The notes: a model not told the origin generated them from the letters alone. 64,000 nt of DNA from Escherichia coli (GCF_003334785.1 NZ_QOWV01000002.1), one strand, 5' to 3'. Positions 7,752-33,913 are shown, counted from the stretch's first letter. Translations and numbers: made by a program.

Positions 7752-9512
7752 TTAAATCCATTTTATGAAATCTTCCATTTCATCATATTTTTTTATTACT
7801 GCTCTAACATCTTTGCTTTCATCACATAAACAATCTAAAAGACTATCCCATTCAGTTTGTTTTTTACCAAATCCATAAACAGCCTCTATATCACCGGATT
7901 TCCATATATAGATTCCGTTATCTTTCAATTTTTGATGTATTTCATGTATATGCTTTTGTGTTTTTTCATGGTTACATATTTTGATGAAGTCTTTGCTTGA
8001 AATGCTTTTGAATGACTCAAAAGTAGTAACTTTTGTATTTAAACTAAGCTCTCCTGAGTTGATTGATTCAATCAAAGCAGTCAATAGATTATCACATTCA
8101 GTACTAAGTAAGTCTTTATGCTCTGTTAATAGAATATTTGATAAGAAATCACAATCAGCTAGAATCCTTGTTTTTATGCCGATGGCATTGATGATTTGTG
8201 ACATCTTAAATAAACTACCCTTACCGTCAACGGCAACAATGCAGATTTTACTCGGGTTGAGTTCATGTCCGTTAATTTTTTTATAAAGTGCATATAGAAC
8301 GTTTGTCTCTGTTTTCCCTTCAACAAGCAAAACTTCTTCAGAAAATAAAAGGTATGATGAATTAGAAAGCGTGAATGCTGAGTGCAATTGCGGTGATGAA
8401 GATTTATATAATTCTTCGATTTTTTCAGATATAGTCTTCCTTGCTATGGTTCCATTAGAATCCTTACAAACCTGAATCGCATTTGCTGCATGCTTTGCAG
8501 AAAGCATACTGGCTGAGTGAGTTGATATTATAACCTGATACCCTGATTCACTTAATGTGACAAGTGATTCTCTGACAGAATTAATGGCTGAAGGGTGTAA
8601 ATATAACTCAGGTTCATCAATGAAAATCAAAGTGTTTGATTTTTTTGATTCGCTGTTTTCTTTTTTTATTTCGGCCAGGTATTGAATTAATGCCATTTGA
8701 ATGGAACGTTGTGTTCCGTGACCAAATCGGCTGATATCTCTCATTACCGGTTCATCTTCCCGAGACTCAAAAACTTTCAGAGTGCCGGATTTAAATATCT
8801 CATCTAATGTCGGTGTGGGAAAGTGTAACTTTACACTTACGTCGGGAAAAAATTGGTTTACTTTTTTATTTACGCCTGAGTCTATTTTATTAAGGCTTTC
8901 TAATCTGTTCTCACCGTTGTGAGAAAGATATTTACCTATTTCTGATATGTTTTTTGAAAATTTTTCTTCGTGTTCTTGTTTTATTTCAGAAACAATTGCG
9001 GAAAGTATCTTTCCTATTGTGGTCGTGTTTTTGCATTTTGTTGAGTCTTCGACAGCGTCAGACATTGCAGGGATATGAATTGGTTCCGGAAATATATTGG
9101 AGATTGCACCATCTATGCCGCCAGGGTTTTTCTTCCACGTGGTACCGTCATATACATCCAGACTTTTTTTGGCTTTTCCTGTTTCCTTATTAAATTCCTG
9201 TCTTCTTGCAAAGGTAAGAGTCCCGTCAATTATAAACGGAGCTATTTTTTGTTGATTCTCTTCTGTTAACAAAGACAGAGTATCATCTGTTATACCTTGA
9301 ATAACGCCTTCAACGGATACGGGGTGTGTAGGATCGTACACATCTGATTCTGAAATCAAAGAGCCATCTAACAGCCACTTAATTGCTAAGATAATATTTG
9401 ATTTTCCTGCGTTATTATAACCAACTAAAGCAGTGAAGGGGCGCAAAATAGCCGATGTTGACTTACAAGAACGAAAGTTGCTAATTGAAACTGAAGCAAG
9501 ACGTACAGTCAT
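7752..9512 (-). CDS. old: Old exclusion protein: OLD-family ATPase/nuclease (586 aa)
   Basis: Walker A LVGYNNAGKSN near the N-terminus, Walker B-like LIFIDEPELYLHP mid-protein, C-terminal nuclease-type region; 586 aa and position next to cos match P2 Old. Confidence 0.8.
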   Translation of the reverse strand: MTVRLASVSISNFRSCKSTSAILRPFTALVGYNNAGKSNIILAIKWLLDGSLISESDVYDPTHPVSVEGVIQGITDDTLSLLTEENQQKIAPFIIDGTLTFARRQEFNKETGKAKKSLDVYDGTTWKKNPGGIDGAISNIFPEPIHIPAMSDAVEDSTKCKNTTTIGKILSAIVSEIKQEHEEKFSKNISEIGKYLSHNGENRLESLNKIDSGVNKKVNQFFPDVSVKLHFPTPTLDEIFKSGTLKVFESREDEPVMRDISRFGHGTQRSIQMALIQYLAEIKKENSESKKSNTLIFIDEPELYLHPSAINSVRESLVTLSESGYQVIISTHSASMLSAKHAANAIQVCKDSNGTIARKTISEKIEELYKSSSPQLHSAFTLSNSSYLLFSEEVLLVEGKTETNVLYALYKKINGHELNPSKICIVAVDGKGSLFKMSQIINAIGIKTRILADCDFLSNILLTEHKDLLSTECDNLLTALIESINSGELSLNTKVTTFESFKSISSKDFIKICNHEKTQKHIHEIHQKLKDNGIYIWKSGDIEAVYGFGKKQTEWDSLLDCLCDESKDVRAVIKKYDEMEDFIKWI

Positions 9513-9716
9513 TATTTTTCCTTAAATGTGCTATTTGTATGCAATGAGTTCATGCGAAACGCTTTTTTACATTTTATAGTCGTTGCATTCAAGGGTGCAT
9601 GAGATTGCATTAAGGGAAACTGTGATATGGCTTGGCTTTTGACTGGAAATACTGATGGCTCATTAGTTTTATTAAGGTGCATTAAAACCGCCCCGTGAAG
9701 CGGGCGGGCGAGGCGG

Positions 9717-9735
9717 GGAAAGCACTGCGCGCTGG
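9717..9735. other. cos cohesive-end sequence GGCGAGGCGGGGAAAGCAC
   Basis: Exact 19-nt match to the P2 cohesive end as I recall it, located between old and Q in a GC-rich region. Confidence 0.5.
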
Positions 9736-9865
9736 CGGTGGTGCTGATTTTGTTTTTTCAGCGTCTGAGCGCGTCGTGAAGGCGCTTAGTCTGCCCGTTG
9801 AGGCGTTGGTGTGTCTGCGGGGTGTTTTGTGCGGTGGTGAGCGTGTGAGGGCGTGATGACGGGGT

Positions 9866-9889
9866 GTAAAAAAGCCGCCCGCAGGCGGC
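9866..9889 (-). terminator. Rho-independent terminator just downstream of Q
   Basis: Palindrome GCCGCC-CGCA-GGCGGC (9874-9889) followed on the minus strand by a U-tract (plus-strand A-run 9868-9873). Confidence 0.6.
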
Positions 9890-9894
9890 GATGT

Positions 9895-10929
9895 TCAGCC
9901 GTTGTCTGTGTCCAGTGAGTAGTTTTTAAAGCGGATGACCTCCTGACCGAGCCAGCCGTTTATTTCCCGAATCCTGTCCTGTAACGGGATAAGCTCATTG
10001 CGGACAAAGACCTTTGCCACTTTCTCAATATCACCCAGCGACCCGACGTTCTCCGGCTTGCCGCCCATCAACTGAAAGGGGATGCGGTGCGCGTCCAGCA
10101 GGTCAGCGGCGCTGGCTTTTTTGATATTAAAAAAATCGTCCTTCGTTGCCACTTCACTGAGCGGGATAATTTTAATGCCGTCAGCTTTCCCCTGCGGGGC
10201 ATAGAGAAACAGATTTTTAAAGTTGTTGCGGCCTTTTGACTTCACCATGTTTTCGCGAAGCATTTCGATATCGTTGCGATCCTGCACGGCATCGGTGACG
10301 TACATGATATATCCGGCATGAGCGCCGTTTTCGTAATACTTGCGGCGGAACAGCGTGGCCGACTCATTCAGCCAGGCAGAATTAAGGGCGCTGAGATATT
10401 CCGGCAGGCCGTACAGCTCCTGATTAATATCCGGCTCCAGCAGGTGAAACACGGAGCCGGGCGCGAAGGCTGTCGGCTCGTTGAAGGACGGCACCCACCA
10501 GTAAACATCCTCCTCCACACCACGGCGGGTATATTTTGCCGGTGAGGTTTCCAGTCTGATGACCTTACCGGTGGTGCTGTAACGCTTTTCCAGAAACGCA
10601 TTACCGAACACCAGAAAATCCAGCACAAAGCGGCTGAAATCCTGCTGGGAAAGCCACGGGTGCGGAATAAACGTTGAAGCCAGAATATTACGTTTGACGT
10701 AAATCGGTGAGCTGTGATGCACGGCAGCACGCAGGCTTTTTGCCAGACCGGTAAAGCTGACCGGTGGCTCATACCATCTGCCGTTACTGATGCACTCGAC
10801 GTAATCCAGAATGTCACGGCGGTCGAGTACCGGCACCGGCTCACCAAAGGTGAATGCCTCCATTTTTGGGGCACTGGCAGTCATTTTTTTTGCCGCAGGT
10901 TGCGGTGTTTTCCCTTTTTTCTTGCTCAT
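9895..10929 (-). CDS. Q: Portal protein gpQ (344 aa)
   Basis: Size, order (Q-P divergent from O-N-M-L) and sequence match P2 Q. Confidence 0.85.
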   Translation of the reverse strand: MSKKKGKTPQPAAKKMTASAPKMEAFTFGEPVPVLDRRDILDYVECISNGRWYEPPVSFTGLAKSLRAAVHHSSPIYVKRNILASTFIPHPWLSQQDFSRFVLDFLVFGNAFLEKRYSTTGKVIRLETSPAKYTRRGVEEDVYWWVPSFNEPTAFAPGSVFHLLEPDINQELYGLPEYLSALNSAWLNESATLFRRKYYENGAHAGYIMYVTDAVQDRNDIEMLRENMVKSKGRNNFKNLFLYAPQGKADGIKIIPLSEVATKDDFFNIKKASAADLLDAHRIPFQLMGGKPENVGSLGDIEKVAKVFVRNELIPLQDRIREINGWLGQEVIRFKNYSLDTDNG

Positions 10930-12701
10930 CAGTAAAACTCCAGAATGGTGGATGTCAGCGGGGTGCTGATACCGGCGGTGAGTGGCTCATTTAACAGGGC
11001 GTGCATGGTCGCCCAGGCGAGGTCGGCGTGGCTGGCTTCCTCGCTGCGGCTGGCCTCATAGGTGGCGCTGCGTCCGCTGCTGGTCATGGTCTTGCGGATA
11101 GCCATAAACGAGCTGGTGATGTCGGTGGCGCTGACGTCATATTCCAGACAGCCACGACGGATAACGTCTTTTGCCTTGAGCACCATTGCGGTTTTCATTT
11201 CCGGTGTGTAGCGGATATCGCGCGCGGCGGGATAGAACGAGCGCACGAGCTGGAACACGCCGACACCGAGGCCGGTGGCATCAATACCGATGTATTCGAC
11301 GTTGTATTTTTCGGTGAGTTTGCGGATGGATTCAGCCTGGGTGGCAAAGTCCATGCCTTTCCACTGGTGACGCTCAAGTATTCTGAATTTGCCACCGGCC
11401 ACCACCGGCGGTGCCAGCACCACGCATCCGGCGCTGTCGCCACGGTGTGACGGGTCGTAACCAATCCATACCGGGCGGGAGCCGAACGGATTGGCGGCAA
11501 ACGGCGCATAGTCTTCCCATTCTTCCAGCGTGTCGACCATGCAGCGTTGCAGCTCCTCGAACGGGAACACCGACGCCTTGTCGTCCACAAATTCACACAT
11601 GAACAGGTTTTTAAAATCGTCGGCGCTGTTTTCACGTTTGAGCTGCTCAATGTCGAACAGCGTGCAGCCGCCTTTCAGGGCATCCTCAATGGTGACAATC
11701 TGCCGCCACTGGCCGTCCGCACAGAGAAGCCCACCGGCAAGGGCGTTATGACTGACGTCGATTTCCACGCGTTCAGCGGCGCTGGCGCGTCCCCGGTTAA
11801 ACAGTTCACCCGACCAGAACGGGTAGGCGTCGTGCGCCAGCGTGGACGGGGTGGAGAAATAGGTCGAGCGCAGGTGACTCTGTGAGGCCATACCTGATGC
11901 CACCTTACGCAGTACCTGAAAATTCGGGATCCAGAAAATCTCATCGACGTACAGGTCGCCGTTATGGCTCTGTGCGGTGTTGGAGTTGGTGCCGAGAAAA
12001 ATCAGTTTTGCACCGTTATTGCCCAGGACAATCGGGTCACCGGTCAGGTCAACGTCAACCAGCCGGGCAAAGGCGATGATGTATTCGCGGAACACATACG
12101 CCTGCGTTTTACTGGCCGACAGAAAAATCTGGTTATGACCGGTTTTCAGGGCGCGCAGCAGCGCCTCGCGGGAAAAATAAAACGTCGCGCCAATCTGGCG
12201 GGATTTCAGGATATCGCGGATGCGGTGCTCAAGCCCGGCGCGATACCAGTGCAACTGATATTCGAAAGACTGCTCAAAGAAAATCTGCTCCAGCTTTTCG
12301 ATGGCCTCGTCACTGAAAAAATTCTTTTTCGGTTTGCGGCGTTCGCCTTTGTTGCGGTTAGCGACGTTCGGATTAAGGTCTGCCTCGTTGCCGGTCTGGC
12401 TGTAACGGTTGACCCGTGCCAGTCGTTCAATCTGGCGTCCCAGCAGGTCAATTTCCTTGAAGTCCCCGCCGGTTTTCTGCGGTTTGATGATGAGCTGGGT
12501 CAGCCGCGCTTCCAGACTCATTTCGACACGGCTGATGGGAGCAACGCTGTCCCAGCCGTCGCGCTGTTTCCAGCTCTGCACCGTCGGGCGTTTCATCTGC
12601 AACATGGCGGCAATCTGCGGCACGGAAAACCCCTGCCAGTACAGCAGCGCCGCCTGACGACGCGGGTCGTGTAAAAGAGTGGTGTCTGTGGTGATGGTCA
12701 T
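10929..12701 (-). CDS. P: Terminase large (ATPase) subunit gpP (590 aa)
   Basis: MTITTDTTLLHDPRRQAALLYWQGF...; start trimmed from the longer track ORF to give 590 aa. Confidence 0.85.
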   Translation of the reverse strand: MTITTDTTLLHDPRRQAALLYWQGFSVPQIAAMLQMKRPTVQSWKQRDGWDSVAPISRVEMSLEARLTQLIIKPQKTGGDFKEIDLLGRQIERLARVNRYSQTGNEADLNPNVANRNKGERRKPKKNFFSDEAIEKLEQIFFEQSFEYQLHWYRAGLEHRIRDILKSRQIGATFYFSREALLRALKTGHNQIFLSASKTQAYVFREYIIAFARLVDVDLTGDPIVLGNNGAKLIFLGTNSNTAQSHNGDLYVDEIFWIPNFQVLRKVASGMASQSHLRSTYFSTPSTLAHDAYPFWSGELFNRGRASAAERVEIDVSHNALAGGLLCADGQWRQIVTIEDALKGGCTLFDIEQLKRENSADDFKNLFMCEFVDDKASVFPFEELQRCMVDTLEEWEDYAPFAANPFGSRPVWIGYDPSHRGDSAGCVVLAPPVVAGGKFRILERHQWKGMDFATQAESIRKLTEKYNVEYIGIDATGLGVGVFQLVRSFYPAARDIRYTPEMKTAMVLKAKDVIRRGCLEYDVSATDITSSFMAIRKTMTSSGRSATYEASRSEEASHADLAWATMHALLNEPLTAGISTPLTSTILEFY

Positions 12702-12874
12702 GAATACCTCGCCGTGATGAATACACGGCAAGGCTACTGAGTCGCGCCCCGCGATTCGCTAAGGTGCTGTTGTGTCAGTGATAAGCCATCCGGGACTGAT
12801 GGCGGAGGATGCGCATCGTCGGGAAACTGATGCCGACATGTGACTCCTCTAATCACTATTCAGGACTCCTGACA

Positions 12875-14864: not shown

Positions 14865-15608
14865 ATGACGAGTCCCGCACAGCGCCACATGATGCGGGTC
14901 TCGGCAGCGATGACCGCGCAGCGGGAAGCCGCCCCGCTGCGACATGCAACTGTCTATGAGCAGATGCTGGTTAAGCTCGCCGCAGACCAGCGCACACTGA
15001 AAGCGATTTATTCAAAAGAGCTGAAGGCCGCGAAAAAACGCGAACTGCTGCCGTTCTGGTTGCCGTGGGTGAACGGCGTGCTGGAGCAGGGCAAAGGTGC
15101 ACAGGATGACATTCTGATGACGGTCATGCTGTGGCGTCTGGATACCGGCGATATTGCCGGTGCGCTGGAGATTGCCCGTTATGCCCTGAAATACGGTCTG
15201 ACCATGCCGGGTAAACACCGCCGCACCCCGCCGTACATGTTCACCGAGGAGGTGGCACTTGCGGCCATGCGCGCCCACGCTGCCGGTGAGTCTGTGGATC
15301 CCCGCCTGCTGACGGACACCCTCGAACTGACCGCCACGGCTGACATGCCTGATGAAGTGCGCGCAAAGCTGCACAAAATCACCGGTCTGTTTCTGCGTGA
15401 CGCTGGTGATGCCGCCGGTGCGCTGGCTCACCTGCAGCGTGCGACACAGCTCGACTGTCAGGCAGGCGTCAAAAAAGAGATTGAACGACTGGAGCGGGAG
15501 CTGAAACCGAAGCCGGAGCCGCAACCAAAAGCGGCCACCCGCGCCCCGCGTAAGACCCGGAGCGTGACACCGGCAAAACGTGGACGCCCGAAAAAGAAAG
15601 CCAGTTAA
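14865..15608 (+). CDS. M: Terminase small (endonuclease) subunit gpM (247 aa)
   Basis: 247-aa ORF following N; Lys/Arg-rich C-terminus; synteny. Confidence 0.8.
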   Translation: MTSPAQRHMMRVSAAMTAQREAAPLRHATVYEQMLVKLAADQRTLKAIYSKELKAAKKRELLPFWLPWVNGVLEQGKGAQDDILMTVMLWRLDTGDIAGALEIARYALKYGLTMPGKHRRTPPYMFTEEVALAAMRAHAAGESVDPRLLTDTLELTATADMPDEVRAKLHKITGLFLRDAGDAAGALAHLQRATQLDCQAGVKKEIERLERELKPKPEPQPKAATRAPRKTRSVTPAKRGRPKKKAS

Positions 15609-29588: not shown

Positions 29589-29615
29589 AAAAAATAAGCC
29601 CGTGTAAGGGAGATT
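29589..29615. other. Prophage attachment core (attR), AAAAAATAAGCCCGTGTAAGGGAGATT
   Basis: 27-bp sequence matching the P2 att core as I recall it; coincides with the terminator/3' end of cyaR. Confidence 0.6.
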
Positions 29616-29675
29616 ACACAGGCTAAGGAGGTGGTTCCTGGTACAGCTAGCATTTTATGGGTTATGTTTTTCAGC
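29589..29675 (-). ncRNA. cyaR: CyaR (RyeE) Hfq-dependent sRNA
   Basis: Reverse complement reads GCTGAAAAACATAACCCATAAAATGCTAGCTGTACCAGGAACCACCTCCTTAGCCTGTGTAATCTCCCTTACACGGGCTTATTTTTT, the CyaR sequence as recalled, with terminator hairpin and U-tract. Confidence 0.85.
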
Positions 29676-29759
29676 GAAACGGATGATAACCTTAATAAAT
29701 GCAGCTGTATGTGATCGGTTTCTAAGAATTTTCCATCCGGGAAAAATAATCGAAATTAA

Positions 29760-32513: not shown

Positions 32514-33913
32514 ACTTCTCTCTGTAAATCCCGTTCCAGCGGTAACTCTACTGTAATGCTTACCCCGCCAAAAGGCGAATGGGCAGCAATAATGCGACCA
32601 TTATGTGCTTCAACAATGTTCAGGCAAATCGCCAGCCCCAGCCCGGAACCGCCGCTGGCACGGTTGCGGGAACCTTCGGTGCGATAAAAACGTTCAAACA
32701 ATTTTTGTAGCTGATCGTCACTGACACCTGGCGCACTGTCGGCAAAGGTCAGGCGCACCGTTTTGTCGCGCTGCCCGGCAGAGATTTGCAGGCTGCCGCC
32801 GCTGTCAGTGTAGCGCAGGCTGTTTTCCAGTAAGTTATTGAATAACTGCATTAAACGGTCGCGATCGCCAAATACGGTAATACTGTCTGGCAGGGAAAAT
32901 TGCAGTTTCAGGCCACGACTGGCGAATCGTTCGCGAAATGCGCCGCCCGCCACTTCCAGCAGTGGGATCAAATCTACCGGTGCTTTTTGATAGGCGAGAG
33001 CGCCTTCATCAGACATCGACAACTGATGGAGATCGTCAACCAGTTTGGTCAGTGTACCGACCTCCGCCTGTAAAGACGCCACCGTCTCCGGCGTGAATTT
33101 ACGCACGCCATCCTGAATGGCTTCCAGTTCACCGCGCAGCACCGCTAATGGCGTACGCAGTTCGTGAGAAATATCGGCCATAAAATCGCGCCGCATTTGC
33201 TGGTTTTTCTCCAGTGTGCTGGCAAGCTGGTTGAAGTCTTGCGCCAGTTTGCCCAGTTCATCTTCACTGGTGGGCGTTACGCGGGTAGTGAAATCGCCCG
33301 CCGCCAGTTTGTGCGTGCCATCGACAAGTCGTTTTACCGGTGCCAGTAAACCGCGCGCCAGCAGAAAAGTGGCAAGTGCCGCGAGTAACGTTGCCAGGGC
33401 GACAATCAACCAGCTGGTTTGCCGCTGTTGTTTATCGAAATTGATATCAGTATTGCGCGTTAACCGCTCAACGGGGGAGGCGATCACCGCGCCAACTTCC
33501 GCACCGTTGACCAGAATGGGTCGCCGTGTACCGTCAGGTGGAATCGGCGCTCGCGGACCAACCAGCACTTTGTTGTTTTGATCAACCACCCAGAACTGGG
33601 TACGCCAGCCGTGCGGTGGCATACCCGGGCCGGGTTTATCTTCCGAATTATCGTGTTCAAATGAACGCAGGATCTGAAAGACAAAGCGATCATTGTTGCG
33701 CAGGAAGCGCCAGTTGCCATGCTGCGCATACTGCTCGCCAAGCGCATCACTTAACAGTTGTAATCGCTGTTCATTACCATGCTTGATGTAATCAATAAAG
33801 CCACGCTCAAAACTGATACGCACCGCCCAGTGCATACTGATCAGCAAGACAATGCAGGTGGCGAAAATCGCCAGAAACAGTTTGCCGGTAATACCGGGTC
33901 GCCAGAACTTCAT
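32510..33913 (-). CDS. baeS: Sensor histidine kinase BaeS (467 aa)
   Basis: Two TM segments, HAMP, H-box (SHELRTPL) and ATPase motifs; overlaps baeR start. Confidence 0.9.

Follow-up and report, generated by a model that had tools for sequence, protein, structure and literature searches.

The region between old and Q of a P2-type prophage in Escherichia coli: a very probable cos site with the transcription signals of both neighbours

Within a 64-kb stretch of Escherichia coli DNA, which we call the window, the interval 9513-9894 lies between a leftward reading frame of the length of P2 Old and a portal gene. Is this interval the packaging site of a prophage and, if so, which of its parts would a terminase use? 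We consider it very probable (about 90%) that a P2-type (Peduovirus) prophage has its cos site in this interval, together with the transcription signals of both neighbours. Nothing was found against the identification of cos and of the terminator tQ, and cos, its core and tQ are already known as textbook features of P2. The finding confirms that the window carries a P2-type prophage whose packaging site is intact, which is useful for annotation because RefSeq leaves cos without any annotated feature.

The cohesive end, the core and their prophage setting

The interval separates old from Q in a P2-type prophage; across the first 25 kb of the window, identity to P2 was 97.6%, with 81% of the length covered. 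The genes around it are the following:

7752-9512, minus strand: ORF of 586 aa, the length of P2 Old; the DNA carries the P2 old annotation
9895-10929, minus strand: Q, portal, 344 aa (phrog_68, E=1.7e-176)
10929-12731, minus strand: P, large terminase gpP, beyond Q
14865-15608, plus strand: M, small terminase gpM, farther along than P

The site has the gpA-side cargo hotspot on one side and the portal gene Q on the other, and P and M, which encode the terminase, are close by. The cargo hotspot of P2-type phages is located on the gpA side of cos (PMC9122126). The adjoining of old, cos and Q is the arrangement expected of an integrated, circularly permuted P2 genome. Integration in an order permuted with respect to virion DNA leaves the cos of the window uncut and internal, in which it differs from that of P2.

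The search for the P2 19-mer GGCGAGGCGGGGAAAGCAC revealed one exact match (0 mismatches) in the 64-kb window, at 9707-9725, and none in 100 shuffles. By megablast, the P2 record (AF063097) ends at window position 9725 and begins at window position 9707, and the annotated P2 cosL (1-19) and cosR (33575-33593) both fall on 9707-9725. The mapping of both record ends to this place bears out the claim of an earlier note that a cos region lies between old and Q. The same note had correctly recognised a 19-nt cohesive end, identical to that of P2, but had placed it 10 bases off, at 9717-9735; these positions read GGAAAGCACTGCGCGCTGG, which is not the cohesive end. Its proposed refutation by alignment to P2 therefore applies literally to 9717-9735, although this is a coordinate slip only, since the 19-mer 10 bases upstream matches P2. 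Left of the cut, 225 of 226 positions (9500-9725) were identical to P2. From 9707 to 9900 (about 194 aligned positions) there were nine small differences, including two 1-nt indels, which lie between +29 and the Q stop.

The cut geometry was taken from the annotations of 186, PSP3 and EtG, where the top strand is cut 5' of the 19-mer and the bottom strand at its 3' end. By this analogy, the predicted cuts are 5' of 9707 on the top strand and between 9725 and 9726 on the bottom strand, which would leave 5' overhangs. Offsets below are counted from the top-strand cut. The limits of the core were set by aligning the window to P4 and 186, each with its ends joined. Similarity to both begins at 9678 (TGCATTAAAACC...), and similarity to P4 stops at 9732 (...TGCGCGC). 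Three features belong to this part:

9707-9725, plus strand: cohesive end, 19 nt; exact unique match to P2 cosL/cosR
9678-9732, no strand: cos core, 55 bp, identical to P2; it starts with TGCAT (9678-9682, offset -29) and ends with TGCGCGC (9726-9732)
9688-9707, no strand: imperfect dyad CCGCCC-N8-GGGCGG, abutting the cut

The core matched P4 at 52 of 55 positions. A 55-bp core common to P2 and P4 is credited to Ziermann & Calendar (1990) in the citing passages of two later papers (PMC9594776, PMC5694545).

The scan scored the dyad as terminator-like on the minus strand. We rejected it as a conserved hairpin or terminator: one arm is altered without compensation in relatives (CCGACC...GGGCAG in 186-type phages, CCACTC...GGGCGG in Ralstonia phage RSY1). 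Because these arm changes are uncompensated, we regard the dyad as sequence and not as structure, and it is probably not a selected hairpin.

The comparative sample came from a pattern scan of IMG/VR with a degenerate core, which gave 120 loci (L011-L130). The invariance of the core in this set is partly a product of construction because the scan pattern fixes much of it; the TGCAT and TGCGCGC columns were nearly invariant although both are absent from the search pattern. A Q homologue was present to the right in 95 sequences (the window included). The Q stop was 180-211 nt from the cut in 86 loci, and a few others carry cargo in between. The 29 sequences without a Q homologue within 1.6 kb were mostly P4-type satellites, with a few truncated loci and one small helper-like group. 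In the latter (L011, L061, L062, L082, L083 and L090) the right flank resembles that of helpers, with CCTGAGCGCGTCGCTG and then a G-rich tract; these loci may represent a lineage whose portal is divergent or into which cargo has been inserted.

A jump to very high GC between old and Q had also been noted earlier. It is real in the right-hand 60% of the interval, where it is moderate (0.69 in 9678-9732, 0.55 in 9733-9799 and 0.63 in 9800-9867), but 9513-9677 has a GC content of only 0.35. The GC of 9678-9867 is matched by stretches inside the Q and P genes.

The Q-side flank

To the right of the core, helpers share a module in the order A/T tract, CTGAGCGCG box, G-rich tract and tQ hairpin:

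9746-9759, plus strand: A/T-rich tract GATTTTGTTTTTTC; A/T-rich here in 28 of 28 helper representatives, in varying sequence
9765-9773, plus strand: helper-specific box CTGAGCGCG; nearly invariant, in helpers whose Q proteins are 75-100% identical to that of the window
9776-9867, no strand: G/T-rich tract, 92 nt, with far more G than C; C-rich and G-poor on the Q-sense (minus) strand
9868-9889, minus strand: tQ, intrinsic terminator that closes the P-Q late operon, with its stem at 9874-9889 and its U-run at 9873-9868

The terminator begins 5 nt past the Q stop and consists of the hairpin GCCGCC-CGCA-GGCGGC, with six G-C pairs, followed by U6. P2 annotates tQ at 160-181 on the minus strand, labelled "putative". 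The stem GCCGCC/GGCGGC and the A-run were kept in nearly all of the 28 helper representatives, and the loop varied. The z-score of the fold was only -1.5, as expected of a short hairpin in a G+C-rich context. A Q terminator hairpin at 9874-9889, as had been proposed, is thus the annotated tQ of P2 with its conserved stem.

The G/T-rich tract is defined by composition. Over 9776-9867 the base frequencies were G 0.48, C 0.14 and T 0.29, and 9800-9867 was strongly skewed (G 0.53, T 0.29, C 0.10, A 0.07). Among the 28 helper representatives (e.g., L004, L018, L032, L054 and L094) the tract measured 84-95 nt (mostly 91-94), with G between 0.32 and 0.54 (at least 0.42 in 27 of them) and C between 0.10 and 0.26; the C/G ratio of the minus strand was 3.4 in the window and 1.8-4.9 in the representatives. 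Length and skew were kept even where the sequences barely align, and between helper groups no word was shared at a fixed position in the tract.

The earlier reading of 9800-9865 as GGTGTG/GCGTGTG-like repeats was not sustained. When 9600-9950 was examined for tandem and dispersed repeats, Tandem Repeats Finder reported nothing, and the repeat search gave only 8-9-mers in two copies (GCGGTGGTG at 9735 and 9831, CGGGGTGT at 9818 and 9860), which is the chance level. Against mononucleotide shuffles of 9800-9867, GTG occurred 10 times versus 5.6 expected (p=0.03) and GTGTG twice versus 0.8 (p=0.2). This is a compositional tract without tandem repeats, whose words are near the expectation from composition. 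At gathering thresholds, Rfam gave no RNA family within 9513-9894.

Loci with inserted DNA showed how the module is partitioned. In L129, an insertion of 1.27 kb exactly at +26 has set all of the right-hand module apart from cos; it lies at about 8149-9420 (locus coordinates), directly after the TGCGCGC of the core, and the Q of this locus is 100% identical to that of the window. Here the tract stays with tQ and not with cos. The insert encodes a protein of 328 aa whose C-terminal part is hydrophobic and which may be the product of a defence cargo gene. Because L129 carries its insert at +26, the Q side of cos is an insertion point too. Four loci (L034, L068, L085 and L106) have about 1.1 kb between the hairpin and Q, and the module stays by cos and the hairpin. 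In L056 and L119 the tract stays by cos, and a small plus-strand gene separates it from the Q terminator. The extra DNA of these 186-type loci, from the post-cos hairpin to the portal gene, spans about +190 to +1330 in the first four and about +190 to +518 in the other two. The tract directly follows the hairpin in both the L129-type and the L034-type arrangements, and the hairpin appears to end the leftward late operon.

As to what the tract does, we favour one reading, though weakly: the RNA of its minus strand may be a Rho loading (rut) site, a backup stop for late-operon read-through ahead of cos. This idea arose because the Q-sense strand of 9776-9867 is C-rich and G-poor, which is the composition of a Rho loading site; about 70-90 nt of such RNA is looked for, and the tract offers 92 nt with a minus-strand C of 0.48 and G of 0.14. 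Rho would then halt transcripts that read through tQ on the tract RNA, before they cross cos into the cargo genes. Little tract RNA may be made, however, because the tract lies after a strong intrinsic terminator, and the plus-strand gene between tract and Q terminator in L056 and L119 does not fit neatly.

It is also possible, with a similar degree of reserve, that the tract has no sequence-specific function and is a spacer, the length and skew of which persist through shared descent or a local mutational bias. Its low positional conservation between helper groups speaks for this, as does the lack of a recognisable motif, RNA family or tandem repeat in it. Against it, the G-C skew (+0.41 to +0.46) is local and not genome-wide, the length is nearly constant across lineages with Q only 75-80% identical to that of the window, and A/T tract, CTGAGCGCG box, tract and hairpin stay together as one module when cargo enters on either side.

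Other candidates in this flank were given low weight or rejected. A plus-strand terminator at 9729-9758, to which we attach low weight, would have a weak stem (three G-C pairs plus wobbles), and the tract that follows it in 186-type sequences is A-rich, not T-rich. A Chi-like role of GCGGTGGTG or GCTGGCGG was discarded by reasoning only: these are not Chi, and their orientation would be inactive for RecBCD entering at the adjacent DNA end. The A/T tract, inspected by eye for an IHF site, had no match to WATCAANNNNTTR.

TGCAT boxes on the old side

The left flank holds the start of the old-tin transcript and a series of short boxes:

9513-9558, minus strand: old-tin mRNA 5' untranslated leader, bounded by the P2 transcript starts; one base differs from P2
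9564-9592, minus strand: probable old-tin promoter, with -35 TTGAAT (9592-9587), a 17-nt spacer and -10 TAAAAA (9569-9564)
9584-9588, 9596-9600 and 9606-9610, no strand: TGCAT boxes 1-3, at offsets -123, -111 and -101 from the top-strand cut
9678-9682, no strand: fourth TGCAT box, at offset -29, inside the core

The transcript starts annotated in P2 (33424 and 33426) correspond to 9556 and 9558 in the window. The promoter assignment is a probable one, read from the sequence relative to these starts; a promoter consensus scan did not list 9564-9592. Its -35 element (9587-9592) overlaps box 1 and is embedded among the boxes.

Box offsets were compared across loci L011-L138 and the window, and the test set consisted of 62 left flanks with a mutual identity below 60%. 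Our results showed that TGCAT occurred at -111 (±1) in 51 of them, and at -101 (±1) in 53; 34 flanks had it at about -122 and 58 at -29, where YGCAT was present in all 62. Boxes at -111, -101 and -29 were found all together in 48 of the 62 divergent flanks. The background of TGCAT elsewhere in the same flanks was 5 in 7750 positions, and the segments around the boxes had a mean pairwise identity of just 0.27-0.34. The left flank is hypervariable, yet the offsets of TGCAT from the cut are fixed. Boxes were present in 9-11 of 11 satellite representatives. RSY1 has TGCAT at -124, -111, -101 and -29, and five further betaproteobacterial-type loci have T/CGCAT at -111, -101 and -29. Enterobacterales helpers, P4-type satellites and Ralstonia/Burkholderiales P2-like phages thus have the box offsets in common. 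Between the boxes at -111 and -101 there are 5 nt of A/T-rich sequence, which can be a T-run or an A-run.

Because packaging by a P2-type terminase is the sole function common to the carriers, the boxes are a candidate accessory recognition array. Judged from these comparisons, the chances are about even that they would be recognised by the small terminase subunit or by a cofactor.

It is unlikely that boxes 9584-9610 are instead transcription signals of the cargo hotspot, acting either as the promoter or operator of leftward genes, old among them, or as terminator arms that end rightward cargo operons before cos. The position of the probable old -35 amid boxes 1 and 2 in P2 would agree with the former. 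The latter would suit P4-type and a few other sequences, in which boxes 1 and 2 extend to a stem of 9-11 bp followed by TTT(T), as might be wanted after psu. However, the offsets from the cut are constant whatever the cargo or its orientation, and this distance is conserved as far as the Ralstonia phages. A cargo promoter is unlikely as the common function because P4 has the boxes though its neighbour psu reads towards cos. Boxes 1 and 2 were also rejected as a terminator hairpin: they can be extended to a stem of at least 9 bp in only 5 of the 62 flanks (4 bp in the window), and the run that follows is of A or of T, a misfit with a U-tract between boxes 2 and 3. With so few stems and such a spacer, the terminator hairpin is not the conserved feature.

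In the searchable literature, only the "55-bp core" was found described and no TGCAT/YGCAT array; the primary study of 1990 lay outside that search. The boxes may already be described there (Ziermann & Calendar, 1990), or may have been shown to be dispensable. The array may be under-described in the literature, and we do not claim novelty for it.

Which parts the terminase would use

The proposal that the GT-rich words of 9800-9865 are repeated terminase sites, an element on the Q side comparable to lambda cosB, is improbable. Like cosB, they would lie on that side of the cut which is closest to the head genes. The distance of 180-211 nt between cut and Q in 86 helper loci is strikingly constant, as are the composition and length of the tract in the 28 representatives. 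A cosmid study reported that cos flanks influence transduction efficiency (PMC9594776). Against these points, several copies of a definable repeat unit were not found in 9800-9865, and the tract barely aligns between helper groups and has no fixed shared word. The tract was neither present in every genome packaged by the terminase nor at a fixed distance from the nick site. P4-type satellites are packaged by the P2 (helper) terminase (PMC9122126), but have nothing in common with P2 past +26, where their sequences are unrelated even to one another and for the most part AT-rich. Among 23 distinct flanks of satellite type or without a portal gene, nothing was consistently shared past +26. RSY1 keeps the core without the G/T-rich tract, and both it and the satellites lack the CTGAGCGCG box. 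Because P4-type satellites and RSY1 do without the tract, and in L129 it lies 1.27 kb away, a terminase-binding role, as had been suggested earlier, is unsupported. We infer from these comparisons that everything to the right of +26, the G/T-rich tract included, is helper-specific and not required next to cos.

Least credible of all is that the interval encodes a small protein: mechanical ORF calling listed both 9695-9856 (plus strand, 53 aa) and 9512-9682 (minus strand, 56 aa), but the former crosses the cut site and its frame is shifted by the two 1-nt indels relative to P2, and the latter begins upstream of the mapped old-tin transcript starts, takes its ATG from what is merely the complement of the TGCAT box at 9678-9682 and lies in a flank that is hypervariable among relatives.

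Once P2 is induced and its DNA replicated, cos is recognised by gpM and gpP, which nick it 19 nt apart and package the DNA. P2 is reported to package from monomeric circles, a single cos supplying both ends. In the window the P2 terminase would presumably nick between 9706 and 9707 on the top strand and between 9725 and 9726 on the bottom strand, after excision and replication. P4 copies the packaging signal to be packaged by its helper. Helpers and satellites were found to share the stretch from about -125 to +26. The flank on the Q side is specific to helpers and can be separated from cos. The packaging-relevant part may accordingly be sought between about -125 and +26 and would be made up of the core and the phased YGCAT boxes (offsets of about -123, -111, -101 and -29). 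The full proposal, that the conserved accessory part is this phased array opposite the Q side, a gpM array that satellites must copy, and not the G/T-rich flank, is one that we regard as doubtful at present.

The comparison has some practical use, since P2/P4 cosmids and transducing particles are built with the "55-bp cos" or with flanks chosen arbitrarily. Should packaging depend on the boxes at -123, -111 and -101 but not on the Q-side flank, it would become possible to design minimal signals of high efficiency on a rational basis. The box model, if true, would also specify what a satellite has to imitate in order to hijack the helper terminase.

Comparison with the closest known systems places the window nearest to P2 (AF063097/NC_001895), with which it shares the 19-nt cohesive end, the 55-bp core, the tQ hairpin and the neighbours, old on one side and Q then P on the other. 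Phage 186 (NC_001317) has TGCAT at about -124, -111, -101 and -29, the core and TGCGCGC, and on the right an A/T tract, CTGAGCGC, a G-rich tract and a terminator hairpin (tW) before the portal gene. It differs at two positions of the cohesive end (GGCGTGGCGGGGAAAGCAT), its right flank is only about 72% identical, and at about -60 there is an additional inverted repeat, CGCCAGAGCTGGCG, that is absent from P2 and from the window. P4 (NC_001609) shares the 19-mer, the core as given above and the TGCAT offsets left of the cut; right of +26 it has no A/T tract, CTGAGCGCG box, G-rich tract or portal gene, and no similarity. The lambda cos (cosQ-cosN-cosB) resembles these sites in its two-subunit terminase, in accessory elements by the nick site and in its junction with head and packaging genes. 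Its overhang is 12 nt, versus 19 nt in P2-type cos, and the sequences are unrelated. In contrast to lambda, the conserved accessory boxes of P2-family cos are on the side away from the head genes.

Part of the interval matched 2153 of 5426 complete E. coli genomes, and the full old-linked version was present in 17. Because the full old-linked flank occurs in only 17 genomes, the old/tin cargo variant is rare among P2-type prophages, in line with its being one of many such variants.

At its far end, the prophage (about 1300-29500) appears to be integrated beside cyaR because this gene borders the last phage-sized ORFs: the CyaR/RyeE sRNA gene is located just past them at 29592-29677 on the minus strand (Rfam, 100.7 bits). 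Past cyaR there are host ORFs of sizes that fit yegQ, baeSR and mdtABCD. Two further elements of the host chromosome, unrelated to cos, are a tandem pair of Sib antitoxin RNA genes (43037-43179 and 43366-43514, both on the minus strand) and a JUMPstart element (59328-59366, plus strand).
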